Source: Escherichia coli (GTDB lineage: Bacteria; Pseudomonadota; Gammaproteobacteria; Enterobacterales; Enterobacteriaceae). Taken from it: a stretch of DNA of 64,000 nucleotides. The position numbers were made by a program, and so were the translations under genes. Shown one piece after another: positions 1 to 21,900 of the stretch. The stretch lies in the NCBI RefSeq assembly GCF_044647545.1, contig NZ_CP172818.1, one strand, 5' to 3'. The number at the start of each line of letters is the position of its first letter. Position 1 is the first letter of the stretch. Under the pieces are notes generated by a model. The model was not told where the DNA came from. It did no database searches and saw only the letters and a program-made list of their open reading frames with translations.

Positions 1-242
1 TTACCGCCTTCACGGTTATGACGAATATATTCAGGATGCGCAGGACGCAAATCCCGCGGAATCAGCATATCAATGTTATTGCCAATGACTTCTTCACGTT
101 TGTACCCCCAGAGCTTCTCTGCGGCGGGGTTGAAAAACATCACTTCATCATTTTCGTTAATTAACACCGCACCCATCATATTTTGCTCAAGGGCGGGGAA
201 AAAAATGCCATCGGCGGCATTATCCGCATCGGTTAGCTTCAT
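1..242 (-). CDS. dosP: c-di-GMP phosphodiesterase DosP, N-terminal 80 codons only (gene continues beyond window start)
   Basis: Reverse-complement translation from ATG at 242-240 gives MKLTDADNAADGIFFPALEQNMMGAVLINENDEVMFFNPAAEKLWGYKREEVIG..., a PAS-type N-terminus; lies immediately downstream of dosC as in the dosCP operon. Not in ORF track because it runs off the window edge. Confidence 0.8.
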   Translation of the reverse strand, partial: MKLTDADNAADGIFFPALEQNMMGAVLINENDEVMFFNPAAEKLWGYKREEVIGNNIDMLIPRDLRPAHPEYIRHNREGG

Positions 243-266
243 AATTACCTCTGCATCCTGACGCAT

Positions 267-1649: not shown

Positions 1650-2024
1650 AATTCACACCCTTATAAGGCTGGGAAAGCAGACGGAATCAAAACGAAACGC
1701 AACGTGCGAGATCGACTAACTGCACCATACTCTCCTGAAATATGAAGATATACTGAAAACAAATAAGCGACTTAGGACAGTTTCAATCTACGCTACTGTT
1801 CTTCAGAAGAGTATAGCCCATCGTAATTATTTTTCGGTGACAGCGAATATCGTATGTTTTTTCATGTTCATACATTTTTATTAGGGGATTTATGACTGTT
1901 TAACTAAGTGTGGTTAATTGCGTAGTTAATTTGACTTAAGTAAGCATGATTACTAGTGGGATATTTCAAGAGGGTAACAAGCCGGGGGGAAAGCACCGGC
2001 TTGTTACAAAGTAAGAATGGGAGT

Positions 2025-3344
2025 TTAACTGCCCCAACGACTTTGCAGATAGCTGACCGCTTGTTGAGTCTGTGGCTTATTCAGATAGTCCTCACGGAAC
2101 AAGATTGTGCCGCTAATTTCTGGCACGGCATCGTTAAGATCGAGCTGCTTTTTCAGTTCCGGTACGCCGCCGTTAATCATCCAGTCTGGCTCTATCTTTG
2201 AAGGTTCACCCACTTTATAGAAGGCGATACCGATATACAGGCGGGTCCTGGTCGGTTTAACGACATCCGCCCACCATTTTGCCAACACGTCATAACGTGC
2301 GGCACTCCGTGAGAACGGCCAGTAAATTTGGGGAGCAATGTAATCCAGCAACCCTTGTTCCACCCATCGACGGGTATCAGCGTAGGATTCGTCATAGGCT
2401 GCCGCGCCTCGGGTATCGGAACCGAGCGGATCGTGTGATCGGTTACGCCACACGCCTGCCGGGCTAACGCCAAATTCGACTTCCGGCTTAATGCTTTTAA
2501 TGGTGTGCGATACCTTCGCAATTAACTGCTGAGTATTGTTGCGCCGCCAGTCTGCTTTTGACGCAAATGCGCCGCCGTATTTGCGGTACGTTTCGTTATC
2601 ATTTAGCCGTGAAGCTGGTGACTCAGTATAGAAATAGTCGTCAAACTGCACGCCATCTACCGGATAGCGGGAAACCACTTCTGCGACTATTGATGTGATC
2701 CAGTCCTGAACCTCAGGGATGCCCGGGTCGAGGACAAAGCGATCGCCGGACGTTCTGATCCAGTCGCGGTGTTGCACATAGACGCTGGCCGGTTGTTGAG
2801 ACAGGGTGCTATTCAGTTCCCTGATAGTACCGGGCTTCGTATTAACCGATACGCGATAGGGGTTAAACCATGCGTGTACTTTCATCCCACGCTTGTGGGC
2901 TTCGTCGAGCATGAATTGCAGCGGATCGTAACCCGGATTTTCACCAATCTTACCGGTCATAAGATCGGACCACGGCAAAATTTTCGATGGCCACAGGGCG
3001 GTACCATCCGGCTTGACCTGAAAAAAGACCGTGTTTATGCCGAGACGTTGCAGATGATCCAGTTTGTCGATCATCGCCTGTTGTTGTACACGGGCCCGGC
3101 TGGTGGGGTTACTAATGTTAACCGAGGAAAGCGGTGGCCAGTCGAGGCGAGACACCGTGGCCAGCCAGATGCCACGCATCGGTTGTGACGATTGTTGCGT
3201 CGTGGCTGGTGGCTTTGAACCCGCTGGTGGTGTCACCATGGACTCTGGAGGCGTGCTTTTACAACTACACAGTAAAAGTGCCAGTGCAACCAGTATCGCT
3301 GGTCTTCTAATCGCTAATTTCTCGTTTCGGGAGCAGATATCCAT
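2025..3344 (-). CDS. yddW: lipoprotein YddW, glycoside-hydrolase-like family, 439 aa
   Basis: 439-aa ORF with signal peptide and lipobox-like LLLCSC near N-terminus; position between dosC and gadC matches K-12. Confidence 0.8.
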   Translation of the reverse strand: MDICSRNEKLAIRRPAILVALALLLCSCKSTPPESMVTPPAGSKPPATTQQSSQPMRGIWLATVSRLDWPPLSSVNISNPTSRARVQQQAMIDKLDHLQRLGINTVFFQVKPDGTALWPSKILPWSDLMTGKIGENPGYDPLQFMLDEAHKRGMKVHAWFNPYRVSVNTKPGTIRELNSTLSQQPASVYVQHRDWIRTSGDRFVLDPGIPEVQDWITSIVAEVVSRYPVDGVQFDDYFYTESPASRLNDNETYRKYGGAFASKADWRRNNTQQLIAKVSHTIKSIKPEVEFGVSPAGVWRNRSHDPLGSDTRGAAAYDESYADTRRWVEQGLLDYIAPQIYWPFSRSAARYDVLAKWWADVVKPTRTRLYIGIAFYKVGEPSKIEPDWMINGGVPELKKQLDLNDAVPEISGTILFREDYLNKPQTQQAVSYLQSRWGS

Positions 3345-3420
3345 ATGTGCTGGTTTCCGGTAAACAGATGTGCGCTCATTCTCGTACTTATCCCGGTTAA
3401 GTCAATACGACAGCAAGCAC

Positions 3421-3449
3421 GAAAAAGGGAGCGATGAATTATCGCTCCC
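3421..3449 (-). terminator. rho-independent terminator downstream of gadC
   Basis: Inverted repeat gggagcgat / atcgctccc with 5-nt loop, followed on the minus strand by a T-run; sits just 3-prime of the gadC stop. Confidence 0.5.
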
Positions 3450-3474
3450 TTATCTTATAACCATTCAGACATGG

Positions 3475-5010
3475 TTAGTGTTTCTTGTCATTCATCACAA
3501 TATAGTGTGGTGAACGTGCACGCGGGTGCAGGAAGAAGTGACCTTTTGGTGCGTTCTGACTGTTGATTGGCTCCAGAGTAACGCCGGTATTCCCTTTGCC
3601 TTTACGATCATGAACAGCATAGAGAATAAAGGGCAGGGCAAGTACCACCAGGAAACTCACGACCAGTAATTCAACATACATATCAGTAGAGTCACCCTGG
3701 ATGTTATCCGGCGGCAGGAAGGAAACAATAAACGCCATAATTGAAGTCAGCAGACCGACAATAGCCACGACCAGTTTCACCCCTTTACCACCAGGGATAT
3801 TAAATGTGCGTTTTAAGTCAGGATGTTTAAGAACCAACACAATGTAGCCAATAAACAGCATGAAATAAGCACACAGATAAATCACCACCGTCAGCGCCAG
3901 TGCGATCAGGAAGGACATGTTGTTACCGCCACCGGTATTGGTGAGGATGATCAACGCGATAGAAGTAATCACCAACTGCGAAATGACCAGCGTTACCGGT
4001 ACGCCATTTTTGTTCATTTTAGCGAATGCCGCTGGCAGCAGGTTTTTCTGCGCTGTGACATACATCCCGCGAGAAGGACCAACAATCCAGGAAGCGATTT
4101 CCGCCAGAACACCCAGCAACAGCAGTGCGGAGATCACGCGAACCGTCCACTCAATTTCCGGTGCCACATGTGACATCAGAACGGTAAAGGTTTGCATTAC
4201 CCCTGCGGAGAGGTTGATTTCATTACCCGGAATGACCATCGCAATAGACAAACCGCCAACAGAGCTTAAGCAGATTGCCGCCACCATCAGCAGTAACATA
4301 GCCAGTGGATAGTCGCGCCCGGGGTTGCTCATTTCATTGACGTGGGTTGCGGAAGCTTCAACGCCCATATAACTCAAAATGAAGGCAACAAATACAACCA
4401 GAGTGCCCACTTTAGAGAAGTCAGGGAAGAAGGTCTTCGCATCCATTTCGATAGCAACGGGGGCACCGGAGTGCAGATAAATAGCCGCTAATGCGATCAA
4501 AATAAATGCAGGTAACAGGATACCGGCGAAGAAGCCAACTTTAGCAATTCGCGCCGTGTATTTCGTGCCACCAAACTGCGTTAATGCCAGCGCCCAAAGA
4601 ATGATGAGTGCTGCAATAGTTTTGGTAATGGGGTCTTCATTCAGCGCTGGCCATTTCAGGATGTAGGAGAGTGCCCCTAACACGAAATAGAGCATCGGAA
4701 TAAAACCAATGGCGATTTGCAGATAGCCAAATGAGATCGCTGCAAATCCCCATCTCGGCCCCAGAGTATTTGATACCCAGGCGAAGACGCCACCTTCTTC
4801 CCAGCCGTCGACGGTAGCCATTTCCGCAGCACAAAGTCCCACGGGAATAAACCATAAAATCCCGCCTAATAGCAGGAAGAAGACTAATGAAAAGCCCGAT
4901 GTTGCGAAGGTAGGGTATTCATAAACAGCCATTACCATCGATGCCGTTATGGCAAAGAATCCGAGTAATGTGAGCTGCTTAGCTTTACCTGTCTGTACTG
5001 ATGTAGCCAT
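3475..5010 (-). CDS. gadC: glutamate:GABA antiporter GadC, 511 aa
   Basis: 511-aa highly hydrophobic multi-pass ORF (APC-family-like) immediately downstream of gadB. Confidence 0.9.
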
Positions 5011-5165
5011 ATTATCCCCCTAAAACGGTATTCCTGTCGGAACCGCACCTGTTTTGTTCTGAAGCGTATTCAGAACAATATTTTCCGTTGCTAATGCCAG
5101 TGAACAGACTTTGGAAATTGTCCCGAAACGGGTGTGTTTCGGGACACCGTTACCGTTAAACGTTA

Positions 5166-6566
5166 TCAGGTATGTTTAAAGCTGTTCTGCTGGGCAATAC
5201 CCTGCAGTTTCGGGTGATCGCTGAGATATTTCAGGGAGGCTTTGTAGTCTTCCAGCAACAGTTCAGCAAAGTCCATTTCGAAGCCGCGACGACACATAAT
5301 GCGCATCACCACGATGTCAGTGGCTTCACCGCCGAGAGTGAAGGCCGGAACCTGCCAGCCGCGCAGACGCAGACGTTCAGAGAGGTCGTAGAGGGTGTAT
5401 CCCGGATCTTCACCATCTTTCAGTTTGAAGCAAACCGCTGGGATGCCTTCGTCCGGGCGACCGGTACAGATGAACTCATACGGCCCCAGTTTGGCGATTT
5501 CATCCGCCAGATAGGCAGCAACCTGGTAGGAAGCGTTCTGTACTTTGGTATAGCCTTCACGACCGAGGCGCAGGAATTCATAGTACTGTGCAATCACCTG
5601 ACCCGCCGGGCGGGAGAAGTTGATGGCGAAAGTCCCAATCTGACCACCGAGATAGTCAACGTTGAACACCAGTTCCTGCGGCAGCGCTTCTTCATCACGC
5701 CAGATAACCCAGCCGCAGCCTAGCGGAGCCAGACCGAATTTATGGCCTGAAGCACTGATCGATTTCACACGCGGCAGGCGGAAGTCCCAGACGATATCCG
5801 GGGCGACGAACGGTGCCAGGAAGCCACCGCTGGCGGCGTCGATGTGCATGTCGATGTCGATACCGGTGTCGGCCTGGAATTTATCCAGCGCATCGTGCAG
5901 CGGCTGCGGGAACTCATAGTTACCGGTATAGGTCACGCCGAAAGTCGGCACCACGCCGATGGTATTTTCGTCGCAGGCTTCAATCATGCGTTTCGGGTCC
6001 ATAAACAACTGACCGGGGCGCATAGGGATCTCACGCAACTCCACATCCCAGTAGCGGGCGAATTTATGCCAGCAGATTTGTACCGGACCGCACACCAGGT
6101 TTGGTTTATCCGTTGGCTTACCTGCAGCTTCCATACGCTTGCGCCAACGCCATTTCATCGCCATCCCGCCAAGCATACAGGCCTCGGAAGAACCAATGGT
6201 GTTGGTGCCAACGGCCTGACCATTTTTCGGTGCAGGCGCATGCCACAGATCGGCAACCATGTTTACGCAACGCAGGTCGATGGCTGCAGATTGCGGATAT
6301 TCTTCTTTGTCGATCCAGTTTTTGTTAATGGATAAATCCATCAACTTGTGGACATTTTCGTCGTCCCAGGTCTGGCAGAAAGTGGCCAGGTTCTGACGAG
6401 CGTTGCCATCAAGATATAATTCGTCATTGATAATCTGAAATGCGACATCGTCGCGCATTTCGTGCAGCGGAAAACGTTTTGATTCTGCGATAGTGGAAAT
6501 AGACTTTGCACCAAAACGTGAATCGAGTAGTTCCGACCTTAAATCCGTTACTTGCTTCTTATCCAT
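5166..6566 (-). CDS. gadB: glutamate decarboxylase GadB, 466 aa
   Basis: ORF track gives 489 aa; trimmed to internal start [21 protein letters not shown] (466 aa) which matches the recalled GadB N-terminus; PLP-dependent decarboxylase motif [10 protein letters not shown] present. Confidence 0.9.
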
Positions 6567-6645
6567 TTTAAACTCCTTAAAATGATTGGATCGCATTAAA
6601 AAAGTAGGATTTATCGATAAAGTAAGCAAGTGCAAAGGACTCGTG

Positions 6646-6665
6646 TTTAAATAACAAAATCCTAA
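6646..6665 (-). promoter_or_regulatory. GAD box (GadE/GadX-GadW binding element) in gadB promoter
   Basis: Reverse complement of 6646-6665 is TTAGGATTTTGTTATTTAAA, the 20-bp GAD box consensus, about 80 nt upstream of the gadB start codon. Confidence 0.75.
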
Positions 6666-7173
6666 TGTTATTTATCGTGAGATATTGCGTGAATAATATT
6701 TTTTCATTGAAAAACAATATAGTAGGGAGCTATTGGGTGGTGGCAAGGTGTTTTATGCTGTTATTTTTATGTGCATTCTGTGCCTCCTGAATTATCACGT
6801 AAAAATCAGACCTTAAAATATCATTATTAGTACGCGGTTATTTACTTTGAACGCATTTATAAAATTATTACATAAAAATAGCGAATATTGCTAAAATCCC
6901 CGCCAACGATGTGTTGACGGGGCTGTGATTATTTTGGCAATAATACCCCGGCATAAGTATTTACCGGATGAGAAAGATATTGTTTAACGCGTTAAGGGGG
7001 GGGGGAGTGAATGTCATTCTCGAGCTCTTTATTCGCTGCCGCTCCGCAAACAGTAACCTTCCACCTTCTCCCATCCACCACCGGCCCCTCGCCTCGTAGC
7101 CGGCCGGCGAGCCCCGGCAGCCAGCATGGTCTCTGCCGGGGTACGGGTGTGGTCAGGCCCCTACTGCCCTCTG

Positions 7174-7364
<191 letters not shown>

Positions 7365-7439
7365 TCAGGCAGGGGGGGGAAACCGAGTAATAATGGGATA
7401 TAAGGTAATGGTGAAAAAAGGATAAACGAAAAATAAGAA

Positions 7440-9150
7440 AGTCTATGTATGAATACGCGCTGGAACCCATGCGGTGGCCTGCCTGCAATTTGCTAAATGT
7501 TGGCTTCAGTTAACTTTATCGTTGAGTAGATAATGTAATTGTCTTGGATAGAAAAATGTGATGTAAATGTCTATATTAAAAAGATTTTAGGATGAAAATA
7601 AACTTGATGATTAAAAAAGGCTAAAAGTAAACTAGAATGAAAATTACCAATGTAACATATAAAAATGGTGAATAAACTGATAAGGTGGGAGGAAGAAAAA
7701 TAATGATAGGAATGTGCTATTCATAAATAATATCGGGTCGGTGAGAATTGATAAATTATATGTATCCGATAGATAAAAAATGATAAACTAAGAGGGTAAT
7801 GGAATTAGTATAATGAGGTAAGTAAAATAATTGATATGATCAGAGTGATGGCTGCTATCATGAAAAGTAGTTACTGAATTATGGTCTGTAAGGTATGTAG
7901 CTCTGGGGGCATAAATTAAATAAAAGAAACTATGTTCTGAGAAAAGAAATTATTATTAATAAAATGCATTGTGTAATGATAAAAATAGTTTTTGGCCTGC
8001 ATAGCGTTGTTGATAGTGAATAATTTAGGAAAAAATAGGCCAGCAGAGTGGGTTCCCTGGTCGCGCTGTCTTTGTTTGATGAACTCTTTCAGAGTGCTGT
8101 CATCATCATTTTTCATGAGTAAACTGCGACTCTTTTCAAGGTAAAAACAGTAATCAATTTGAGATTAATTGAAAACTGGAGGGCTGGCTCCTGCATTCTG
8201 CTCCTGCCGGGCTTTTTGATTTGTTAATTTTGATTTATTGTAGGGTGGCTGGCTGCTGTGATAAACTCTTTAAGCTTGCATCTTTTAACGACCTGCGGAT
8301 TGGGGGGCAAGGTTATTTTTGCTTAGATCGTGTTGTAGATAACTGATGTTTTCTACTGTATAGAAAGGAATAATCGTTTTACGTATAGAATTGGCTTAAG
8401 TCTGTGTTGGGGTTATGCGGGTAATTTGACTGATGGGAAAAATTTGGGTAATTTCAGAATGGAATATTTCTGTAAACAGTGAGAATAAGAGGTTATCAGG
8501 TAGATTTTTATGTGGCTGCTTTTTTATCTGCAACAGGGCAGCAAGGAAACGCCATCAGCTTAAGGTCTTTGGAATGCTGATATGGCTGATAAGAGCTGTA
8601 GGTAAAATCATTGGGAAATAGCTGTATAATTACGGGTGAAGTCACAATAAAATTGGGGTGTGAGTGCGGATAGGTCTGACTTTAAGCCTGCCGAGCGGCA
8701 AGGACATCGATAACGCACATTATGGAGGTAAAGAGAATAATTGTATGATACTGTCCGTCAGTTGTCGAGAATGCGTAACCTGATAAGAATAGGAAGCGTA
8801 GTAGTTACTTACTCAGATAATGCTTTGATTGATCAGGTGAGGATTATTTGGCAGGTCGGAGCTTTAAGCAGGTAGCTTGGCTGGTGTGTGGCGATAGTGT
8901 TGGTGTGCGTGGGGTTGAAGTTGGGTGCCTTGGGGTGTGTTGGTGGGGGTGTCTTGGAAGTAAGAGAGAAAAAGTGGGTGAGTGAAGTAGTAAAAGAGAA
9001 GAGAAGAAGGGAAAAAGTAAAGGTTAAGTAATTGAAAAAATGAATAAAATGAGAAAATGGAATTGAGATAAAATAATATGAAAGGTTATGAAATGATAAA
9101 TATGTGATGAATGTATTATTTATTAATAAATATATCGCCTAAAAACAACG
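7440..9150. other. cytosine-depleted, AT-rich low-complexity non-coding block
   Basis: Plus strand is almost entirely G/A/T, with G/T-rich and G/A-rich stretches; no credible ORF, RBS or RNA gene; occupies the position of pqqL-yddB-yddA-ydeM-ydeN in K-12. Confidence 0.8.
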
Positions 9151-9203
9151 CGGGGCAGGGAATGACTGCATTTAATTTTTAGTAGGGTGCGTGGTGACTC
9201 TCG

Positions 9204-9974
9204 TTAGCAAATAATCAATCCTAAAGCACTCATCGTGTTGTCCGTGTTCATACCGGTGTGCCTTTGACAACGGTACTCCTTAGAAACTCTCTTTGGACTG
9301 TTGCCGAAATGTTTGCGGAACGCATAAATAAAATAAGATGTACTCGCATAACCACATTGTTCGGCAATTTTATTGACTGAACCTTCTACGCGTATCAAAT
9401 TTTTTGCGTGCTGCATTCTGGCATCTAAAAGAATCTGTGAGAATGTCGTTTGCTCTTGCTTTAGTTTTTTCTTCAACAGGCTTTCACTGATGTACAGGCA
9501 GTCACAAATATCTTTCAGCTTCCATGGGTGCGCCAGCTTCATGTTGACAATATTTCTCACTTTCCCGGAAACGGATAGCACACCGTTAGTTAATAGTGTA
9601 ATGAAACCTTTGCATGCGGCAAAAATAGACAGGCAAGAAAAAAGCAAAAGTTCTGAAAAATTATGATGATTGCGTTCTTCCGAGTTGAGATAAGCAATCA
9701 TTTCATTAAGCAATCCAGTCGGTACATTTGAAGCACGTAAAAACTTCGCAGGAACAGGCACCGTCACTGTCTGAATGTTAGTGCATTGTAGATATTTTTT
9801 AATGGTATTTTCATTAAATCCGATTTCTTTGAAATGCCGCTCATAAGGTTCAAAATGCGTACGAACAGCGTTATCTACCATCAGGATCTCGCCGTCAGAG
9901 AAGGCGTAATCTTTATCTAAAATGTTAGCGTTGAAGGCATGATGAATAAATATAACAGAACAAACGAGCGACAT
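9204..9974 (-). CDS. ydeO: AraC-family acid-resistance transcriptional regulator YdeO
   Basis: 256-aa ORF with C-terminal AraC-type HTH; directly downstream of safA and ydeP as in the K-12 safA-ydeO operon. Confidence 0.8.
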   Translation of the reverse strand: MSLVCSVIFIHHAFNANILDKDYAFSDGEILMVDNAVRTHFEPYERHFKEIGFNENTIKKYLQCTNIQTVTVPVPAKFLRASNVPTGLLNEMIAYLNSEERNHHNFSELLLFSCLSIFAACKGFITLLTNGVLSVSGKVRNIVNMKLAHPWKLKDICDCLYISESLLKKKLKQEQTTFSQILLDARMQHAKNLIRVEGSVNKIAEQCGYASTSYFIYAFRKHFGNSPKRVSKEYRCQRHTGMNTDNTMSALGLIIC

Positions 9975-10048
9975 TTTATCTCCTTAAAACAATAAAGTTT
10001 TTATCGATACTTTTTTAACATTTCATATTTATAATTTGCTGTTTATTT

Positions 10049-10246
10049 TCAGTCTTGCAAACTATTGATAATGAAATGTGTAAGATCTCTTGCAATGCGA
10101 CCCATTTCTGAAATACCCAGCTGATCAATTGCCGAAAAAATGGCTATCAACGTAAGTGTCAGTAATAAGACAACCACAATTACAGACATGATTTCTTTAT
10201 AGTTGTCTCTTTGCGTGATTTTGTTTTTCACTGTGGTCGCATGCAT
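10049..10246 (-). CDS. safA: two-component connector membrane protein SafA, 65 aa
   Basis: 65-aa ORF with single hydrophobic segment (VIVVVLLLTLTLIAIFSAI), located between ydeP and ydeO. Confidence 0.8.
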   Translation of the reverse strand: MHATTVKNKITQRDNYKEIMSVIVVVLLLTLTLIAIFSAIDQLGISEMGRIARDLTHFIINSLQD

Positions 10247-10493
10247 TTCAAATATGTTTATTTAGCGGATAACGTTAAAAATCGTTAATCAGTATGCTTA
10301 ATATAACAGGCTGGAAAAAAGAGGAAATAGGACTGGTGCTTCAGTACTGAGCGGAGTTTCTTACAGCTGTAGGCAGAAGTTTATATCTTATAGTATGTAG
10401 TCTAATTTAATCCATGTGAGCAAATTGCGCGATAATAGTCAATGAGGAATTCTTCTGCTGTGCGGATGACAGCAGAAGAAATGAGAAGAGGCA

Positions 10494-12773
10494 TTAATTT
10501 GATGGTTCTAATTCAACCGGAATACTTTTATAGCCAGGAATGCCACTTAATGGATCGTGGTTATCAAGTGTTAGCATGTGATTCGATTCTGGAAAATAGG
10601 TCACCAGTGAGCGGTCAGCCATAGGGTAAATGACCACTTTTAATCTATCCATGCGTCGTGAGCTACGTTTACCGTCTGGCGTGAGTGCAATAAGATTAAC
10701 TCTTTCGCCGTTTTTTACACGGCAAATTTTAGCTTGTTTAGCACTCATAAAGACCACATCTCGTTGACCGAATACACCTCGATAGCGATCATCCATACCA
10801 TAAATCGTCGTGTTGTACTGATCGTGGCTGCGTACTGTCGCCATGACCAGTTTACTGTTAAACGCTGAAGAGGGATCTTCTAACAGCCCTTTGCTGGTAA
10901 TGAAATTAGCCTTACCTGACGGCGTCATCCAGCGCCTTTCAGCAGCTGCGTTTATCAGGTGAAAACCACCAGGATGACGGATGCGCTGGTTATAGTCGGC
11001 AAACTCTGGCAGCACAGCTTCAATGTCATTGCGAATGCGATCATAATCTTCCACCAGATACTCCCAGGCTACCACGCTCTGGGGTAGTGCTGCCTGCGCG
11101 ATTCCCGCGACCACTGCACACTCTGATTTCAGCATTACACCGGCGGGTTTTAACACACCACGCGAGGCATGAATCATCGACATTGAATCTTCAACGGTTA
11201 CCGCCTGCGCACCGCTTTTTTGCATGTCAATCTCGCTACGTCCCAGAACCGGCAGAATATAGCTATGCCGTGCGGTCAGCAGATGAGAGCGGTTAAGCTT
11301 AGTGGCTACGTGTACAGCCAAATCTAATTGCGTTAACGGTACAGCGCTCGCTTCCCGATCTGGCATTGCCAGCGCAAAGTTGCCCCCCATGCAGATCAAT
11401 GCTCGAGCTTGCCCCGTACATATTGCTTGCATGCTGGCAATTGCAGCATGTCCAGGTGCATGAGGTGGGGTGAAACCATAGCGCTCACCCAGGCGAGCCA
11501 GAAACTCTGCAGACGGTTTCTCGGTGATACCGACGGTTCGGTCGCCCTGTACATTAGAGTGACCTCGTAGTGGGCAGATGCCCGCACCAGGCTTGCCAAT
11601 GTTACCTTTCATCAACAGCAGATTGACCAGTTGCTGTACATTCTGGGTACCATGTTCGTGCTGAGTGATCCCCATTCCGTAACAGATAATGGTGCGGTCG
11701 GCAGCGGCATATGCATCAGCCAGTTCGGCGATTTGAGTCTGACTTAGTCCAGAAATACGCTCGATATCTTTCCACTCGGAATTGAGAACGTCACGGCGTA
11801 GCTCGTCAAAGCCGACGGTATGCGTTTGAATAAATTCGTCATCCAGCAATGAGGGCCGACCTGCGGCGCTTGCAGCATCATCGCGCTCAATTAACAGGCG
11901 CATCATCCCCTTGAGCAACGCCATATCACCACCAATGCGCACGTTGTAGTAGGCACTGGCCAACTGAGTCTCAGAGTTCGTCAGCATTTCAAACGGGTTT
12001 TGCGGTGCGGTAAATCGCTCCAGGCCACGTTCCTGTAGAGGATTGATGGCGATCATTTTCGCTCCCCGTTTCACTAAAGCGCGCAACGAACTCAGCATGC
12101 GAGGGTGGTTTGTACCAGGGTTATGCCCAATGCAAATGACTAAATCGCATTTCTCAAAGTCTTCCAGCAACACGGTCCCTTTACCTACACCGATACTCGC
12201 TGCCAAACCCACACTGGTCGGTTCATGGCACATGTTGGAGCAGTCGGGGAAGTTATTGCTCCCGTATTCACGGGCAAAAAGCTGATAAAGAAAGGCAGCT
12301 TCATTGGAAGTGCGGCCCGAAGTATAGAATTCAACCTGATTGGGATCACTATAGCTTTGAAGGCGTTCGCCAATTTCGTCGAAAGCTTGTTGCCAGCTTA
12401 ATGGCTTGTAACAGTCGCTGACGGCATCATATTTCAAAGGCTGGGTGAGACGCCCCGCAGCCTCAAGCTCGTGGTCTCCCCAGGTAAGTAATGATTGAAC
12501 CGTATTCTCAGCAAAGAAAGAGGCGTTTACCTGCTTATCCGTGACTTCCCAGGCGATTGCTTTTGCGCCGTTTTCACAAATGTCGAATGACGCACTGTGC
12601 TTAGGATCTGGCCATGCACAACCCGGACAGTCAAAGCCCTCTGGCTTATTCATGTCAAACATGGCAATAACATCCTGGCGTATATCCATCTGCTTACGTA
12701 CTGCATTCGCTACGGATTTAACAGCACCCCAACCACCGGCAGCCCCCTGGTAGGATTCAATTTTTTTCTTCAT
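10494..12773 (-). CDS. ydeP: molybdopterin oxidoreductase YdeP (formate-dehydrogenase-like), 759 aa
   Basis: 759-aa ORF with N-terminal Cys cluster (CPGCAWPDP...C...C) typical of molybdopterin oxidoreductases; synteny. Confidence 0.9.
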
Positions 12774-13111
12774 CTACTTATCCTGTGTGGAAATGAATTA
12801 TTAGGATTTGAAATAGCGATGATGCACAGTATATACAAAGGGATTATCGTCAATATGGATATATAAGAGTAGGGGACTACTCTCTTTCTATTTTTAATCT
12901 ATTATCGTTAAATAATAGAATGGTATAAATACGATAAGTTAAGCATCATCTCTCATAGTGTTTAAATTAACATGTTTTTCAATATAAAAAATAAGACTCT
13001 GGCGTTAATTGTGCGCGGATTTTCTTACAGGTGTAGGATAATAGCCTTCACAAAATAATTATCCGCGCAATTTTCGCGAATGGAGCGCATAGACTAAGGT
13101 CAAAATCACAA

Positions 13112-14026
13112 TTATTCATAGATAAAAGTGACACCAATGACTGACTGGACGGTTCCGGCTGCAACCTTGTTTCCTGTTTGTCCATAGGTTGCGCTTAAAC
13201 CCAGAGGTACTTTGCTTTTATTTACTGTCCCCAGGGAGACATTTTCTCCCGTTGCCAGTATTTTTCCATTACGTATCAGAGAGACACCCACTCCCGATGC
13301 TTTTGTTGCATCAGGTGCCGTGTTAGCAAACACTTGTCGGGCACTGTCAGTGGTGGCACCCGAAAGATAAAATGAGAGCTTTTGTTCGCTTGAGCAATAT
13401 ACGCCAAGGGGTATTTCTGCGCTTCCAGGAAAGTCCGGGAGATCCACGGTGACATTACGACTATCAACAGTGCAGCCGCCTGTTGGCATAACAACACTGT
13501 TATTTGAAATAATATTCCACGTAAAATTACGCGGATTTCCGCTTCCTAACGTGGCAATTTTATACATATGAATACGGGCAATAACTTCCCCGGCTTTTAT
13601 GACAACTCCACCGGCCGCCCCGACTGGGGTAATATAGAGTTTTAACGGTAATGGCATCGGTGTCTTATCACCAATATCCAATACGTTGGTATTTGTCGTC
13701 AACGGGAAGGGGTAGGTCACATTATTCCAGTACAGCGATCCCTTATATGACTGTAGAGAGCCTGCGAAAGCTGAGCCTTGTACCAGGTTTATATGATCAG
13801 TGTCGTACCAGCCGCCGTAATCATTCCAGCAACTTATATGCTGAGACAAGTCTACAACCAGATTCTGGCCCGGCTGTATTACAGGGTCGAGATTAACATA
13901 AACAGAGGTTGTACCAGCTCCAATACTTGACCCGCCATCGACATTACAACTGAAGGCAAAAACTTTACCTGCCATTAATAGAAAATAAATACCGAACAGG
14001 ACCTTTATACTGATTGTTTTACCCAT
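13112..14026 (-). CDS. ydeQ: fimbrial adhesin-like protein YdeQ (FimH-like), 304 aa
   Basis: Signal peptide, fimbrial subunit C-terminal beta-strand (VTFIYE), two-domain size typical of tip adhesins. Confidence 0.8.
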
Positions 14027-14085
14027 GATATATCCTAAGGTTAAAAAATTGATTTAAAAAGAAGGCTAAGAAAATCGAATCGACG

Positions 14086-14589
14086 TTATTGCCAGGTGTA
14101 GATCACATTGATTAGCGCCTCGATCGTTCCCTGGCTTGCGTTTCCATTCACCGTGATAGCTCTTGCCTTAAGTGGAAACTGTGCATTACGAGTGATCTCA
14201 TCAACAATAACCGTTTTGCTATCGCCATTTTTTAACGTCGCATCCTGGTCATCCCTCAGCTCTATCTGAATATTTTCGGCAGTACCTTCATTTTTGTAAT
14301 AACCCGTATTGTCAGTTGAACCTGTCACGATTGCCGTCACTGCACTTGTTTCAATCGGACAATCGGTTAATGACAAAGTAATATTGTGCCAGCCAGATGC
14401 AGAACCAGGTTGTTGCAGATTGCGTGTATAAAGATCCCCGAGATTAACGTTAGCTTCTTTGGTTTGAATAGTGCATGGTTTAGCGACTACCCGACCATTA
14501 ACAGTGATAGTGACATCGGCGGCCTGGAGAGTTGCTGTGAATAATGTGCAAAACGTAGCTAACAGGAACCTCTTGTGAAGTCTTTTCAT
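14086..14589 (-). CDS. ydeR: fimbrial minor subunit YdeR, 167 aa
   Basis: Signal peptide plus fimbrial subunit fold length; synteny in ydeQRST cluster. Confidence 0.8.
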   Translation of the reverse strand: MKRLHKRFLLATFCTLFTATLQAADVTITVNGRVVAKPCTIQTKEANVNLGDLYTRNLQQPGSASGWHNITLSLTDCPIETSAVTAIVTGSTDNTGYYKNEGTAENIQIELRDDQDATLKNGDSKTVIVDEITRNAQFPLKARAITVNGNASQGTIEALINVIYTWQ

Positions 14590-14601
14590 ATCTGACTCTG
14601 A

Positions 14602-15132
14602 TTATTGAAATTCAAGGGTAAAGGTTGCCGAAGCGCTCACCAGTCCAGGATTGACGGACTTCTGAGTTGACTTCAAACGAGCGGAGTAAGGCAAAATATT
14701 GTTCTGTTCTGGTACCAATGGGATCCACTGCATCCCGGCATGAAGGTCATTCAATTTCACCGGACGCATATTTCCGTCCAGTATTTCTATACCCAAACCG
14801 GAGGCCGTATTGCTTCCTTCATCCAGTTTCAACAGAGTATTATTTTCTGCATCCTCAATACCGTTAAATGCAACCCGAACTCCCGTTGTCCCTTTGCTGC
14901 ATTCACTTAATGTAATCTGAAAAGGGACGGCTGGACTTGTGCTACCGGTCGTTGGAAATTGTCTGGCACTGTTTTTTTGGAGATCTACGGTAAAATTAAG
15001 CGAATCCGATGAGACTGTGCAGCCATAATCGAGGACGCGCCCGCTAATTTTAATAACGCTATCTGCGGATAAAGCAGAATAGGTGGTTAACCCCAGACAT
15101 AAACCGAGGAAAATAATGTTATTGTATTTCAT
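14602..15132 (-). CDS. ydeS: fimbrial subunit YdeS, 176 aa
   Basis: Signal peptide, conserved Cys pair, C-terminal TFTLEFQ-type strand; synteny. Confidence 0.8.
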   Translation of the reverse strand: MKYNNIIFLGLCLGLTTYSALSADSVIKISGRVLDYGCTVSSDSLNFTVDLQKNSARQFPTTGSTSPAVPFQITLSECSKGTTGVRVAFNGIEDAENNTLLKLDEGSNTASGLGIEILDGNMRPVKLNDLHAGMQWIPLVPEQNNILPYSARLKSTQKSVNPGLVSASATFTLEFQ

Positions 15133-15145
15133 AATCTATTGTTCC

Positions 15146-16294
15146 TTAGCGACAGATTGCTGTCTGCTGGTTCAGTAAGGTACCAGGAGAAACTTCAGGA
15201 AGCTTGTACTCGACAATACAGTTTGAGTTTTTATCTTTGCCCCATGAAACCTGTAATTTCCCTGACTGTGGAAGTCCAGTCAGATAAACCTGACCGTTTT
15301 CCGCGACAATGCTGCCATTTTTATTCTGTCCATGTGTGACAATTGCACCGAATGGAACGCTCTTATTACCGTACTTCAACGTCATTAATACTTTCCCGCC
15401 GATTTGTGCATTAAATGTTGCTCTGGCAATAGCACCGTGAGTTGGGATGACAGTGACAACGGTTTCATCCAGTTCAACATTATCTGCAAGGGAATTCGCG
15501 TTAAGAGCGACACGATTTTCTCTATATTCTGTCGCAAATGGTAATATGGCATAGCCACGCCAGTCGGTATGAATACCGGTCTGGTTCTCTATTTTGACAT
15601 TATCAGCGCCAGGAGCCTTAACCAGAACCATTGTGTCGCCCAGCGGCTGTCCAAAGGTGATGCCATCAGCATGAGCAATAATGCCACCACTCATTCCGTA
15701 ATAAATCTGGCTGCTGTCACCACTCCGACTGTAACCGATATTCGTATTACCGTAAGCTCCACGATAATTAAGAGAACTGTAACCACTGGTGCCAGACGAT
15801 GTATTACCCCCGTGGGTGTTACCGACCTGAACACTATAATTCAGGTTATTATCCGGCAGCAGAGTGCCATAAACTCCCGATAGATTGGTCATGCCGCCTT
15901 TCAAATCGTTTGACATACTGTAACTGGCGTTTGAGTTACGAAATGTCGACTGACTGTCTGTACGCATCCAATGACTGAAGGGAACATTAAGCGTAAAAGC
16001 AAGTAAATGATCCCGATCGTTTTGCCATATATTATTGGAATAGCTGTAATTCAGCGAAGTCGTAATATCACTAAACGGCACATTTAATCCAAATGATATT
16101 TGCTGGTCGCTGCGTGACGTGTTCCAGTAACTTTGGCGACTGGCACTGAAAAATGTCGTACCGTAATTTCCAAGCTGCTGAGAGATGCTTATTTGTTCCT
16201 GACCACGCTTACTGTAGAACAGATTAAAATAATCAATAAATTGTGTCTGCTCATTGCTGTCTCCGGTAGGAGGCTTGACGGTGTAACCACTCAT
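15146..16294 (-). pseudogene. ydeT: fimbrial usher C-terminal fragment (ydeT)
   Basis: 382-aa ORF resembling only the C-terminal third of an outer-membrane usher (full ushers are about 850 aa); no chaperone gene and no usher N-terminus upstream. Confidence 0.7.
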
Positions 16295-16546
16295 TCGACT
16301 GTAGGCACTGTCGGATAAGTTATAAAAACCTTGCGTAGAATAGCGATATCCTGCGACCTGGATATTGGTTCCACAACAAGTTTATTGCAGCACTTGTTGA
16401 AGAGAGTATTTGCAAAGACATTTTATGTCGCTAAATAACATGACGATTTCATTATGCATGTTATTTATAAACCGTGACTAAACAGAATATTATTGCGAAC
16501 AAGGGAAGTGTCAGGAAAGGTCAAGAGCGACCAATGGCTTATATGG

Positions 16547-16975
16547 CTATAAATCATTAGCTATAGTTAATGTTTGCCTGGTGTAACTAACACGGAATTG
16601 CTCTAAACAGATAAGTGCAGGGTTTATTAAAGCTGACCGACAGACTTTCTTAACCTGGTAATATCTCTCAGGTGACTCTCCAAACATCCGCGAATATTCC
16701 CGACAGAAATGGGATAAGCTTTCGTAACCGACAGCATAGGCTGCAGTGGTGACATCGTAATGTTCATTCAGTATCAGTCGCCTGGCTTCATTGAGGCGTA
16801 GCCATTTCTGATACCGGAGTGGACTCATTCCCGCAAGCTGTCTGAAGTGTTGATGGAAAGGGGGGCGTTCATTTGCACGCGGTTTGCCAGCCTGACTCTT
16901 CAACGCAGGGAAGATGCGGCAAACGGCAAACCTGCATACCAGCCAGCCTATATCCGGTATGCACAGGCCAATCAT
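16547..16975 (-). pseudogene. yneL: AraC-family regulator fragment (yneL)
   Basis: ORF contains only an AraC-type HTH region (…RYQKWLRLNEARRLI…GYESLSHFCREYSRMFGESP…) without a sensor domain; position matches K-12 yneL. Confidence 0.6.
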
Positions 16976-17159
16976 GAAAGAGGAGAGGCTTTATGTTCTG
17001 GAACCCTGAAGTAATAACGACGACCGGAAAATCGCTTCGCATCACTCAAATCCAATTTAACATAATATACATTATGCGCACCAACATAAACCAAGGAAGA
17101 ATCCAGTCGTTGGCGGTCATGATTGTCCTGCTCATTAACAACGACCAAAACCCCATATC

Positions 17160-18482
17160 TTACTTAATACCGTATTCTCGGCTTAACCGGTCGTGCAACC
17201 TCAACACATTGGTTTCAACTGCCGTCACCACGTTCTCCGGAAAATCTGTCGGTAATGAAGTCTTCACGTTATCCAGTGCTGCTGGAATCATTCTGGCAAA
17301 GTCACTCAGGATTTCATGCATCTGCACTTCCGGGAATCTCAGCACCTTTGCTGTCGCCAAAAAATGTCGCGGATAAATTTTATCGATTGCCGTTTTTTTG
17401 CCTTTGGATGCGTTAAGCCCCATTGCCAGTTTGAGATCGCTGATGTGTATTCCCGTACCGCCAAGGACCGGAAATGCTGAAATGATGTCGTAAAATGGCG
17501 TGAGTCGATAACTGCCGCCAGCCTGAATAAATACGGAGAAGTTTTTTGCATGACCGTCCGTTGCGCCAATCAACCACTGGAAGACCTGGAATTTCATAAA
17601 ATCATAGCGATCTTTCAGCGCCTCGCTGGACCCCATCAAAAAAGCCATGATCCGCGCGATGCCTGGGCCTCCATCTGATTCATATTTCACCGATGAAGGT
17701 AAACCGAATGTCTGACACATATCCTCCTGTGGCAAGCGAAGTAAAACCGTTCGCTCAGCATTCCAACGCCTGTCAAAACGTTCGACCGCTAACGCGCGCA
17801 CATTTCCCGCTTTAATGATTTCTGCGTCCGGAACATTCAACCCAAGTTCTTTCGCCAGCAGCAGACAGTAATACTCATTATCAACGCTTTGGCTGAGATC
17901 GAGCGTCGCATTGGGCTGCCTGATTTCGCCAATCGGTAATTTAATGATGTGCGTCGTCGGCGTTATTCCTTTCGGAATGCACCAGTCATTGCCTATTCTG
18001 AGCAGTGCTGTCTTCTCCTGTGCGCCAGCAACCGAGATGCGAAAGTCATTTTCTTCTCTAATCATGCCTAGCGGGATATCTGCTTTATAAGCCGTTAATA
18101 CTTCTTCAAGTCTGGCTTCAGTAAGCTTTTCCCATGCCATTATCGGATGCGTTACGGTTTCGTCTTCGGGTATTAACGTCACGGCACCAACGCTGTCTCG
18201 CCCTATTTCTGACAATAAATCAAACGGTTGTCTGGATTTGGCATGATAACGTTTAACGATCCGGTCACGTACAATCGGGCTATCGGGTAACAGGTTATCG
18301 AAGAAGTTAAATACGGCATCAGAGGTGATATTCCCCCTCTGCAATGGCAGCGAAAGTGACAACGGTCTGGCATAACGGCTTGCTAACCACTCCGGTGCAT
18401 ACTTAAAGGTGTGCGCGCCGTTGGCTAACTTCGTTAACTCGCCTACCCGCTGGTTGTTCATCCAAGTGACAAGTTTAGGCAT
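17160..18482 (-). CDS. hipA: HipA serine/threonine kinase toxin, 440 aa
   Basis: ORF track 459 aa; trimmed to MPKLVTWMNNQRVGELT start (440 aa) whose ATG overlaps the hipB stop by 1 nt. Confidence 0.9.
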   Translation of the reverse strand: MPKLVTWMNNQRVGELTKLANGAHTFKYAPEWLASRYARPLSLSLPLQRGNITSDAVFNFFDNLLPDSPIVRDRIVKRYHAKSRQPFDLLSEIGRDSVGAVTLIPEDETVTHPIMAWEKLTEARLEEVLTAYKADIPLGMIREENDFRISVAGAQEKTALLRIGNDWCIPKGITPTTHIIKLPIGEIRQPNATLDLSQSVDNEYYCLLLAKELGLNVPDAEIIKAGNVRALAVERFDRRWNAERTVLLRLPQEDMCQTFGLPSSVKYESDGGPGIARIMAFLMGSSEALKDRYDFMKFQVFQWLIGATDGHAKNFSVFIQAGGSYRLTPFYDIISAFPVLGGTGIHISDLKLAMGLNASKGKKTAIDKIYPRHFLATAKVLRFPEVQMHEILSDFARMIPAALDNVKTSLPTDFPENVVTAVETNVLRLHDRLSREYGIK

Positions 18483-18748
18483 TACCACTCCAGATTTTGC
18501 TGTTCTGTTGATTCTGGCGAGGCATTTTTCGCGTCGCATAGCGTCATTGAGAGTTCAAGCGACTGTAAAATCTTAAAAAATGTCGTGAGCGTGGTATTGT
18601 CAGGGTTGTTTTCGAAATTGGAAATCGTCGCCTGCTTAATACCAATTTTTTTCGCCAGCTCGCTCTGCGTCCAGCCATTTTGCTGGCGAACCAGTTTCAT
18701 TGCATTCGCCAATTGCGTTGGGCTATAGATCTTCTGAAAGCTCATCAT
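18482..18748 (-). CDS. hipB: HipB antitoxin, HTH-XRE DNA-binding protein, 88 aa
   Basis: Trimmed to MMSFQKIYSPTQLANAMKLVRQQNGWTQSELAKKIGIKQATISNFENN... (88 aa); helix-turn-helix motif; immediately upstream of hipA. Confidence 0.9.
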   Translation of the reverse strand: MMSFQKIYSPTQLANAMKLVRQQNGWTQSELAKKIGIKQATISNFENNPDNTTLTTFFKILQSLELSMTLCDAKNASPESTEQQNLEW

Positions 18749-18959
18749 GTCATACGTCCACAGCAAGTTTATCCGCTTAAGGGGATATTATAAGTTTTAT
18801 CCTTTAGTGAGGATAAGTCAATCTGGAAACACATCTTATCCGCTCTACGGGATAAACGCTGCGATATCCGCGATCGCGGATAAAAAGGAGGATTTAAAAG
18901 TCGTTTGAAGTCGGCAATATTAAGCCGCATGCATCTTCGACATGCGGCTTATACGGTTT

Positions 18960-21900
18960 ACCAGCTATATTTCACACCCAGCATGCCCTGAGTATCGCTA
19001 TAGCCTTTATCACCTAGTTGCACACCGACATTCCCCCACAGGCTAAGGTTGTTATTTACTTTCGCCTCAACCCCGGTACGTACTTCACCGAGATTACGCG
19101 CACCATCACGGCTTACGGTTTGACCATTCATCTTCACGGCGTAGACTTTGCTGTTGTTGATCCAGTTCGCTTCAATGTAAGGCTGGAACTCACGCTGTTT
19201 ACCATTGTCACGCTGGTGTAGTCGTCAGCAGAACGGTTATCGGAACTGACGCTGTTATCAAACCAGTTATACAGCGCCCAGCTGTCAACATAAGCGCCGG
19301 TCTTATTCGCATCGTTCTGATACCAGGTCGCGTACAGTCCTGCGCTGTAACCGCTGATGCGCCCATCCGATTTATAACCCACATGATTACTCTGAGTATT
19401 ACTGTGCTGATTGGCATAGCCTGCCATGACGCCGAGATGCCAGCGATCCTGCGCGTTGCTACTCCACTGCGCCAAATCGCCGCCCTTGCCATATTAATGG
19501 CAGAGTCGGAACCGAAAGCAATTTCCCCCCCACGATATCCGTCGTACCCTGATACGCCGCGGAATCGTTGTTAAGAGTCAGGATCCCGGTACCCAGTTTT
19601 GTCACATCACCGCTACCGCTGATACTGTGCGTCATCGCCCAGCTACGCTCAGTGGAGATGGTGAGCAGGCCATTATTGATAACGGAAGCATCACCCAGGT
19701 TTTTCTGCTCGTTGACGCTGAGCGCGCTGCCTGTATCAATGTTGAATTGCCCCACAAAGCGGCTATTATCGCCATCCAGCTCTACATCTGTCCTGGCGGT
19801 TGCGCTCACGATACCCTTCCCGCTTATGCCATTGCGCAGTTCGCCAGTCACGTTTTTTAGCGTTAACAGACCGTTATTGGCAATATTTCCGCTGCCTAAC
19901 CCCTGCGTATTATCGAGGCTGACTTCCGCATTTGGGCTAATGCTGGTTAACGCATTGTAGCGTGCATTAAGCCCCTCGATAGCCAGCGTTCCCCCTGTAA
20001 CATTCAGGTTTCCGCCACCTGTCAGTTCACCCTGACTGATCCCACCTTTATTTACCGTCAGCGCCCCCTCTTTGAACAAAACAGTCGAACCCATCTGCCC
20101 GGTGAATGTCTCTACCGTCTGCGTCGATCCATTAAGATCGACGATGGCCGCGTTGCTGATGTTCAGTTCCCGGGTGTTGCCAAGTGCACCATCCGCATCG
20201 GTACGTAATGTCCCCATCTGAACGTAGGTTGCCCCCTGATAGTCGTTCTGAGCGTTGGAAAGCGAAACCTGTCGCACCGTATTGATTGCCAGATCCCCTT
20301 CACCACCGATTTTTGCCGACATATCGGCCGTTGCGCCATAGGCTCCGCCATGTTCGGCTAACGTCAGCTTTTGCCCTCCATGGATGTTCAGCGCTTTCAG
20401 CCCATAGTTAACGTACAAACCATCACCTGGTGCGGTCGTGAGGCGGAATCCATAATCACCCTCGGCGACCACCGTTCCGTTTTGCGCAATGTGTAACGTT
20501 TTGTCCGCTTCCACCTCGTCGCCCTGTAAATCACGTAACGTTAATGAGCCACCCGACCCAATAACCGTTTGCGCCTTCACCAGTTGAACGCCGACATGGC
20601 TATCATCGTGTTCCAGCAAATTGAGCGTCGTCAGAGGGTTATTCGCCATGGGATCATTCCACGGTTTAGGCACGTCGATAAGCACGTCGCCCGTCCCGTT
20701 TACCTTATAGTTACGGCCTTTCCAGGTGTAGTCACTCGCGCCGACAACCAGCGTATCGACGCTGATATATCCCTCTGCAAGCGTCGCAGCAGGAATATCC
20801 GTATCGAAAATGAGCGTACCGCCATTCATGGCCAGTCCACCAATGGATTGCTCTCCCACGTTTACCGATGTGGTATTTTCAATGTCAGACTGCAACATCG
20901 CGTGAGTAAGCGCAGCGGTGTTGTCGCGTTCCAGAGTGAAGGTACTGTCTTTCAGTTGGGCAACACCGGCGAATTCAGTCCCTGTTGCATGGGTAAAGCC
21001 AAACATCTTGTCGGAGGATGACAGCTGCACTCGCATCAAGCCATCGCCTTTGAGCGCATTGGTCAGCGTGTAATCTCCTGCGCTGTTCGTTGATGCGAGA
21101 ATGTCGAGCGTACCGGGGCTTGCAATGGTGACTTCACTCGAACCCATGCCTGTTACCCCATCTGCCGTATGTGACGCAATAGTCAGGAGGCCGTCATTGA
21201 CCAGCGTTTTACCGCTATAAGTATTCCCTGCATTGAACACCGTATGGCCTGCATCATGCATCACTTTTCCGTCTTTATCGTCACCCGTAATCAGCATATC
21301 GACCTGGTAGCCGGCATCACTGTTATTGGTATGATTAAAGACAAAAACGCCTTCGCCAAGACCAAACTCCACTTTCGTCGCATTGGTAATAAACCCGGCA
21401 TCTGCCGCTACCTCACCGTGAGCAGCACCAATGTTTAGCGTTCCTACAGCAGGCTCAAAAACACCTAAGTAAACTTCTCCACCTTCGACATTCAGCGTGC
21501 CGTTATTCGTCAGGGTTAACGTACCTGTGCCAGTCGTCCCTACGTTCATATTGAATGTTTCAAGAAGAGAGTTCTGCCCATCCACCCGCACGTCGCCCTT
21601 ACTTTTGTCATTCAGAGCTATCTGTGTATCACGCGCTTTAACTATACCTCCGGTGGTAATATTCAGTTCACCCGTGCCTAATACACCGACCTGTAGCAAT
21701 TGGGCGTTAGTAGATGACGTTTTTAAATTCCAGAGACTATGCGTTGAAATATTAACTATCCCCTTACCGGAGGCATTTCCTCCGATAAATCCATAGCCCG
21801 TTGAATTAAGGGTGGCACCATTACTGACATTTACGATGCCGCTACCAAAATTACCGACATTGATACCTACAGTATCGAACGATGATGTCGCATCCATCAG

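Follow-up and report, generated by a model that had tools for sequence, protein, structure and literature searches.

The ydeP-safA-ydeO acid-resistance module of this Escherichia coli contig abuts a block of anomalous sequence, within a stretch of 64 kb that is referred to here as the window. This arrangement raises the question of whether ydeO truly ends differently in this isolate, with its native downstream context and terminator replaced, or whether the deposited sequence is at fault. Readings of the anomalous block as a biological object are to be weighed here against an artefact of the assembly.

The ydeP-safA-ydeO module and its promoters

The three genes of the module all lie on the minus strand, with ydeO as written at 9204-9974 (a 256-aa ORF), safA immediately upstream of it at 10049-10246 (65 aa), and ydeP at 10494-12773 (759 aa). 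The assignment of these three genes in the preliminary description is borne out by the annotation of identical DNA and by Pfam, which agree. The window from 9230 to 13000 is 100.0% identical in at least 12 complete E. coli genomes, all of which annotate ydeO, safA and ydeP, and ST648-lineage genomes match the DNA at 100% rightward of 9222. YdeO contains the AraC-type double helix-turn-helix in a C-terminal domain that is matched by two models, PF12833 (HTH_18, E = 3.8e-16, residues 157-231) and PF00165 (HTH_AraC, E = 1.7e-16), both above the gathering score, and its identity is further given by its position downstream of safA and by residues 1-251, which are those of WP_000060474.1. SafA, the small membrane protein that connects the EvgS/EvgA and PhoQ two-component systems, is intact and is a member of its family, matching PF17073 over the full length (residues 1-65 of 65, E = 1.1e-47); its coding DNA is identical to the annotated copy, as it lies within the 9230-13000 interval that is 100% identical to an ST648 genome annotating WP_000543389.1. 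YdeP, a putative oxidoreductase of acid resistance, is likewise intact and is matched, as expected, by the molybdopterin oxidoreductase model PF00384 (E = 9.9e-26); ST648-lineage genomes carry a ydeP with 100% identical DNA. The module agrees in gene order, orientation and sequence with the ydeP/safA-ydeO locus of K-12 and of strain ST648 (NZ_CP008697), with identical coding DNA for SafA and YdeP; it departs from that locus only in the two final codons of ydeO and in all that follows them, a departure that we attribute to corruption of the sequence.

An 18-bp EvgA-box-like inverted repeat was found intact in each of the two promoter regions, TTCTTACAGCTGTAGGCA at 10358-10375 (plus strand) upstream of safA-ydeO and TTCTTACAGGTGTAGGAT at 13022-13039 (plus strand) upstream of ydeP, which places these genes in the EvgA regulon. 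Each has one mismatch to TTCYTACANNTGTARGAA, which we take to be the EvgA box consensus and against which both sites were scored. No other one-mismatch site occurs in the 64 kb, where chance alone would give 0.64, and the two sites coincide with the two promoter regions. In K-12, EvgS/EvgA acts on PhoQ via SafA and on gadE via YdeO, YdeP is a separate EvgA target, and the genes are induced in an EvgA-dependent manner at mildly acidic pH (PMC4283999). The functional roles proposed earlier, SafA acting on PhoQ and YdeO on gadE, match both that work and the annotation of the identical DNA, and the same EvgA-dependent induction at mildly acidic pH would be predicted for the genes in the window. 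The module is thus made up of ordinary E. coli acid-resistance genes, the EvgS/EvgA-controlled part of the AR2/GAD network, unchanged from ST648-lineage strains.

The 3′ end of ydeO and its terminator

The preliminary description had suspected that the C-terminus of YdeO differs from the reference, and alignment upholds this. YdeO has 256 aa in the window compared to 253 aa in the closest genomes, and shares 251 of 253 residues with WP_000060474.1, an AraC/XylS family protein, including an intact HTH_18/HTH_AraC domain. The identity ends after residue 251, where the canonical terminus ...MSALAI becomes ...MSALGLIIC (AI* to GLIIC*), so that YdeO here has neither the canonical length nor the canonical C-terminus. 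This mismatch does not count against its membership in YdeO, because the change sits in corrupted sequence. An upstream start-codon extension by the ORF caller was rejected as the source of the 256 aa, as the two proteins agree at the N-terminus and differ at the C-terminus. At the DNA level, two bases are substituted and 2 nt deleted within 9219-9221. The deletion, at 9221, shifts the frame so that the true stop (plus-strand tca, 9215-9217) is no longer read; the gene as written ends in ...GCTTTAGGATTGATTATTTGCTAA, where ...GCTTTAGCTATTTGA is the expected native end.

These are the last of a run of errors that extends beyond the gene. Inspection of 9150-9203 revealed that it is not identical to the reference, with 11 differences between 9165 and 9200, and altogether 15 differences fall in 9138-9221, followed by 1 in the next 7,150 nt. 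At 48-70 nt past the end of ydeO, the reference carries a terminator-like hairpin, which in the isolate would be expected to read TGGGGCAGCCATTCCCTGCCCCG with a T-run after it; its remnant in the window (about 9151-9170) has lost three C's and acquired one substitution, and a hairpin is no longer detected. The earlier proposal that the downstream terminator is affected is accordingly true for the text of the record. The distance of 50-70 bp that had been placed between the ydeO 3′ end and the edge of the block must be revised, since the corruption extends 18 nt into the written ORF, to 9221, and takes in the two final codons of true ydeO. The visibly low-complexity text ends near 9135, and errors continue beyond it.

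The altered end is unique among the sequences searched. Public data list exactly this 256-aa sequence a single time, as WP_400165254.1 on 1 contig (4,499,902 nt), while the 253-aa form is found on at least 1000 contigs. Of the 5,381 complete genomes with a match to 9140-9300, none exceeds 91.2% identity, although many agree with the adjoining 3.8 kb at 100%. A genuine mutation of the isolate, yielding a GLIIC-tailed YdeO that merely adjoins an artefact, would fit the 18 clean bases (9201-9218) that set the changes at 9219-9221 apart from the previous error, and would probably be tolerated, as it lies past the AraC-type helix-turn-helix, the Pfam match to which ends at residue 231. However, the changes are of the same type and of similar density as those in the preceding 84 nt, they sit exactly at the boundary beyond which a single SNP occurs in 7,150 nt, the protein is a singleton on one contig, and no complete genome exceeds 91.2% identity over this stretch; such a mutation is very improbable.

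Composition of the block at 6990-9221

The anomalous block spans 6990-9221, about 2.2 kb, and overlaps ydeO. To its left lie intact gadC (3475-5010) and gadB (5166-6566), both on the minus strand as given by the annotation of the reference locus (L002; window position = L002 + 3465). A program-called ORF at 5166-6635 is gadB plus an upstream TTG extension only. The sequence from 3466 to 6989 is 100% identical to NZ_CP008697 and includes, error-free, the last 61 nt of the M16 metallopeptidase gene pqqL (6929-6989, minus strand; pqqL is L002 3464-6247). The 100% match stops at 6989 (L002 3524), which sets the left edge of the corruption at 6989/6990.

Four segments make up the block. The first, 388 nt of orphan sequence at 6990-7377, stands in place of 7.2 kb of the reference (the rest of pqqL, yddB and yddA) and contains a C/G-rich stretch at 7006-7174, a run of 48 G's at 7175-7222 and a run of 114 G's at 7249-7362. 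The second, at 7378-8892 on the minus strand, derives from ydeM and the 3′ half of ydeN (L002 10728-12778; identity 75-78%) but is corrupted, retaining 59-82% of the reference letters and no ORF. The third is a G/T-rich stretch at 8893-8957, without detectable homology, with a retention of 0.15-0.28, where the reference has about 840 nt from the 5′ half of ydeN. The fourth, at 8958-9221, is the corrupted ydeN-ydeO spacer, within which lie what is left of the terminator hairpin and the end of true ydeO (two codons plus the stop), and its alignment to the reference exceeds that of shuffled sequence with z = 9.4. From 7378 to 9221 the block is collinear with native ydeM, ydeN and spacer, in native order and orientation. 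The premise that a real block has replaced the native context downstream of ydeO does not hold, as what lies there is still the native ydeN-ydeM sequence in degraded form.

The errors are of a single kind. In this collinear copy about 600 letters are missing and 0 inserted, and the two BLAST pieces, aligned with symmetric gap costs, contain 267 deletions and 0 insertions. Only 38-48% of C's are retained, compared to 78-90% of the other bases. A global alignment with very cheap gaps over-fitted the left part of the block into meaningless fragments of 2-40 nt, and only long segments were used. When 7006-7174 and 8893-8957 were aligned to the reference with a deletion-tolerant scheme, they scored no better than shuffled queries (z = 0.6 and -0.7), a result that speaks neither for nor against a continuous degraded pass, since retention of 5-15% would give no signal. 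Among 5,426 genomes, 0 cover 80% of 6300-10300, the first 669 nt of the block had no match in E. coli genomes, and the C/G-rich orphan segment (7004-7176), searched for as vector, control DNA or mobile element, had no match in plasmids or phages. An origin in a divergent Escherichia species, suggested by an identity of about 92%, was rejected, as the corrupted block pulls that average down and ST648-lineage E. coli matches the flanks at 100%.

Origin of the block

Outside the block, the window is nearly free of differences from its sister strain. Compared to NZ_CP008697, positions 1-6989 show 0 differences and 9222-16372 show 1 SNP; with both corrupted patches left out, 1-57418 differs from strain ST648 at 18 positions and by one structural difference at 16372-18830. 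The second patch, at 37160-37490, lies 28 kb from the block in an unrelated gene, encoding a diguanylate cyclase, and is of the same style, collapsing to poly-A runs and showing 165 deletions, 0 insertions and 36 substitutions, of which 35 are to A, within perfect surroundings.

The block could be taken as real DNA standing in for pqqL-ydeN and the terminator of ydeO, whether inserted from a foreign source or left behind by hypermutation and decay. It is, after all, present in the deposited assembly, its product has a RefSeq protein accession, and natural pqqL-yddA deletions occur in other strains. However, the greater part of the block is native rather than foreign and is collinear with the reference, and its divergence of about 25%, made up entirely of deletions and base-specific loss, lies beside flanks with 0 differences from the sister strain. 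To our knowledge, no mutational mechanism produces such deletion-only, base-specific divergence, and E. coli would not be expected to maintain a tract of 114 G's stably. Neither an ORF, a mobile-element hallmark nor a database match was found in it, and the patch of the same style in the diguanylate cyclase gene further argues against it. We give this reading almost no credence.

The YdeO tail is instead very probably the right-hand fringe of a 2.2-kb corrupted patch in the deposited assembly and not biology. The altered sequence is absent from independent genomes (0 of 5,426 cover the block, the best identity over 9140-9300 is 91.2%, and the protein is on 1 contig), the error pattern of base-biased letter loss, homopolymer collapse and sharp edges is incompatible with mutation, and the fault recurs at 37160-37490, an unrelated site of the assembly. 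On this reading the source of the patch was the correct native sequence from pqqL to ydeN and the spacer to ydeO, from which letters, C above all, were lost and some overwritten, with the worst part collapsing into poly-G. Such damage would reflect a failing read or a consensus or polishing step, as opposed to a mutation of the DNA; it is the signature of the sequence that suggests a technical origin, and this signature does not tell which step failed. In its sharp-edged patches, deletion-only errors and collapse to a single base (G in the block, A at 37160-37490) within an otherwise near-perfect sequence, the pattern resembles consensus or base-calling failures of long-read assemblies, a likeness that draws on the general knowledge that homopolymer collapse and deletion-biased low-quality patches occur in such data. 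In contrast, the strong loss of C and the 114-nt homopolymer do not, from the sequence alone, point to any particular named failure mode.

A real structural difference, for example a truncated pqqL without yddB-yddA, may nevertheless lie beneath the artefact and is compatible with it. In strains such as Z1323CEC0015, a truncated M16 pseudogene is all that separates gadB from ydeM, a natural short arrangement without yddB-yddA. A similar arrangement here would account for the location of the failure and for part of the shortness of the block; recognisable homology does resume near the ydeM 3′ end, and structural differences from ST648 exist at other places in the window too, namely hipBA/ydeT and the prophage in ydfJ. 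The flanks, however, are identical to ST648-lineage genomes that carry full pqqL-yddB-yddA, and we regard this arrangement as unlikely, though a minor possibility. The 388 nt of orphan sequence are uninformative on this point. There is also a very slight chance that the isolate truly has the 2-nt deletion at the ydeO end, possibly together with a pqqL-ydeN rearrangement that provoked the assembly failure; if so, its YdeO would carry the five-residue GLIIC tail in place of AI, and the normal terminator would be missing.

With the artefact as the preferred explanation, no biological consequence can be drawn for YdeO, its terminator or coupling to gadBC; the change in the YdeO C-terminus is the last error of the degraded stretch. 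The YdeO of the real isolate is expected to be 253 aa long and to be followed by a normal terminator and then by ydeN and ydeM. The RefSeq protein WP_400165254.1 appears to owe its existence solely to the artefact, and any pangenome or presence/absence analysis of this assembly would count pqqL, yddB, yddA, ydeM and ydeN as missing or pseudogenised. The 64 kb contain at least one more corrupted patch, that in the diguanylate cyclase gene. The finding is of value as a data-quality flag and is biologically unimportant, the acid-resistance module being a textbook one that is unchanged.

The ydeP / safA-ydeO module

Three minus-strand genes occupy 9204-12773, which the mechanical ORF list gives as ydeO (9204-9974, 256 aa as written), safA (10049-10246, 65 aa) and ydeP (10494-12773, 759 aa). 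Pfam searches with the translated ORFs identified an AraC-type HTH (HTH_18, residues 157-231, E = 3.8e-16) in YdeO, full-length PF17073 (E = 1.1e-47) in SafA, and the molybdopterin oxidoreductase domain PF00384 (E = 9.9e-26) in YdeP. At least 12 complete E. coli genomes, strains ST648, IMT16316, MS6198 and ECONIH1 among them, match the whole of 9230-13000 with 100.0% identity, and all of them carry annotations of ydeO, safA and ydeP there (the annotation of NZ_CP008697, strain ST648, was inspected). The gene names assigned in the preliminary description are thus confirmed by the domains and by identity to annotated genomes. The 64-kb window was also scanned for the EvgA box, whose consensus we take to be TTCYTACANNTGTARGAA; up to three mismatches were tolerated. 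Exactly two matches were found in the window, each with one mismatch to this presumed consensus: the site at 10358-10375 lies between safA and ydeP, and that at 13022-13039 lies upstream of ydeP.

As judged by domains, identity, synteny and EvgA boxes, the locus is the known ydeP / safA-ydeO module, and nothing at it is novel; the sole tested feature in which it departs from the known module is the canonical YdeO C-terminus, which lies inside corrupted sequence. The functional role first proposed for these genes also agrees with the published one, in which EvgA activates ydeO and YdeO in turn gadE, while ydeP, adjoining safA and ydeO, is an acid-resistance gene of its own under EvgS regulation (PMC4283999).

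The right edge of the block and the YdeO C-terminus

The edges of the anomalous block to the left of ydeO were mapped by aligning the window to NZ_CP008697. Positions 1-6989 showed no differences. In the aligned piece beginning at 9060, 35 differences were counted, of which 34 fell at or before 9221 and one, a SNP, in the 7,150 nt that follow. These limits put the block at 6990-9221, with its last 18 nt inside the ydeO ORF, so that the gap of 50-70 bp originally placed between the end of ydeO and the block does not exist. Fifteen differences lie in 9138-9221, though the sequence there no longer looks low-complexity; they comprise losses of C, C>T and C>G substitutions, one-letter losses of T and A, and four changes at 9219-9221. 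A terminator-like hairpin found in the reference 48-70 nt downstream of ydeO (TGGGGCAGCCATTCCCTGCCCCG, then a T-run) was searched for in the window and not detected; in the alignment to the reference, one arm is without three C's and one G is changed.

A reference length of 253 aa and an altered YdeO C-terminus had both been suspected, correctly, as translation of ydeO from the closest genome gave 253 aa compared to 256 aa in the window, with residues 1-251 identical and tails of ...MSALAI* and ...MSALGLIIC*, respectively. At the DNA level, the 3′ end carries two substitutions relative to the reference, A>T at 9219 and T>C at 9220, and next to them a 2-nt deletion (9221) that shifts the frame, so that the native stop (tca on the + strand, 9215-9217) is bypassed and the next stop is reached at 9204-9206. 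The ORF caller's choice of start codon was rejected as the cause of the 256 aa because the difference sits at the C-terminus. The exact 256-aa protein occurs once in public collections (WP_400165254.1, from a single 4,499,902-nt contig), as against at least 1000 contigs encoding the 253-aa form. Eighteen clean bases precede the change at 9219-9221, as might be expected of a real mutation that happened to fall at the patch edge, a coincidence we regard as highly improbable; if real, the change would probably be neutral, located 20 residues past the HTH domain.

Composition of the block

By BLAST against the reference, 7659-8189 and 8244-8807 align with ydeM and ydeN at 75-78% identity, with native gene order and orientation kept, and on these sequence grounds the block is not foreign DNA. 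Deletion-tolerant alignment extended the recognisable copy left to 7378, the ydeM 3′ end (z = 11-15 vs shuffles), and on the right placed 8958-9221 as a copy of the ydeN-ydeO spacer (z = 9.4 vs shuffles). With symmetric gap costs, the two long BLAST pieces contained 267 deletions and no insertions, and the deletion-tolerant aligner, whose scoring disfavours insertions, aligned all 1,923 window letters of 7378-9300 to the reference with none left over. Within the two BLAST pieces, only 38-48% of C was retained vs about 78-90% of A, G and T. Retention of reference letters was 0.59-0.82 across ydeM and the 3′ half of ydeN and 0.15-0.28 across the 5′ half of ydeN, after which it climbed through 0.52 to 0.90, the last bin extending past the 9221 edge.

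The remaining 388 nt (6990-7377) had no detectable template; at this position the reference has 7.2 kb that hold yddB, yddA and what is left of pqqL. Taken whole, the block puts 2,232 nt where the sister genome has 10,467 nt. This part holds a C/G-rich piece (7006-7174), a G48 run (7175-7222) and, after a 26-nt interruption, a G114 run (7249-7362). The C/G-rich piece had no matches in E. coli genomes, plasmids or phages, and its alignment to the reference was no better than chance. Adjacent XhoI and SacI sites (ctcgagctc) at 7019-7030 in this segment are probably chance, since the segment matched no vector, plasmid or phage.

Beneath the artefact, the isolate may carry a short pqqL-ydeM arrangement, a natural form in other strains in which a truncated M16 pseudogene directly precedes ydeM. 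The window is structurally unlike ST648 at two other places, but annotated ST648-lineage genomes have the full pqqL-yddB-yddA, and we consider this arrangement unlikely here.

At 16372-18830, a truncated ydeT-like fimbrial usher is followed by hipA/hipB, as in K-12-type genomes, while ST648 has a complete fimbrial operon with IS2 and without hipBA; with 97-98% identity to other genomes, this looks like natural variation. At 57419-64000, the window diverges from ST648 within ydfJ and passes into a Qin-like prophage remnant (pinQ, tfaQ, nohA and ydfK in matching genomes) at the same insertion site as in K-12. An ECSE_1600-family autotransporter gene, annotated as frameshifted in ST648, is a 1300-aa ORF in the window (19459-23361, minus strand), with a C7 tract at 22042-22049 vs C11 in ST648 and without a CTAG at 19484; this could be natural slippage or phase variation, or else homopolymer error in either assembly.

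Origin of the block and consequences

A second corrupted patch lies 28 kb from the block in an unrelated gene. Here, 331 nt (37160-37490) replace 496 nt that cover the 5′ part of a sensor diguanylate cyclase gene and the spacer preceding yneG. The patch has 165 deletions and no insertions; of its 36 substitutions, 35 are to A, its poly-A runs are 10-28 nt long, and only about 23% of G is retained. The surrounding 3 kb has no differences from the sister genome.

The block and the YdeO tail are, with high confidence from sequence comparison, a sequencing or assembly artefact beside a standard module. Both flanks match the sister strain and stop doing so at sharp edges, and a 25%-diverged interior between identical flanks would need an enormous, strictly local mutation burst. 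The changes are solely base-specific losses and overwrites of letters, ending in homopolymers; to our knowledge, no mutational process produces this pattern, while a failing base-call or consensus step does. An artefact is further indicated by the same style of error in the second patch and by the few differences from ST648 outside both patches (18 positions in the aligned parts of 1-57418). The variant is also unique in public data, as no complete genome exceeded 91.2% identity over 9140-9300 (5,381 genomes with a match) and none of 5,426 reached 80% coverage of 6300-10300. Speculatively, the absence of insertions would fit a per-column consensus or polishing step, whose output at each column is one base or a gap and almost never an additional letter.

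The distinctive element of the finding is thus not a real biological feature. WP_400165254.1, a RefSeq/UniRef singleton (UniRef100_UPI0037DCB5F8) named as YdeO, seems to owe its existence solely to the corrupted ydeO 3′ end in this assembly. Its presence shows that the window derives from an actual deposited assembly, and through it the artefact has already propagated into a protein database. The practical value of this result is as a warning on this assembly and on other findings concerning the block itself.
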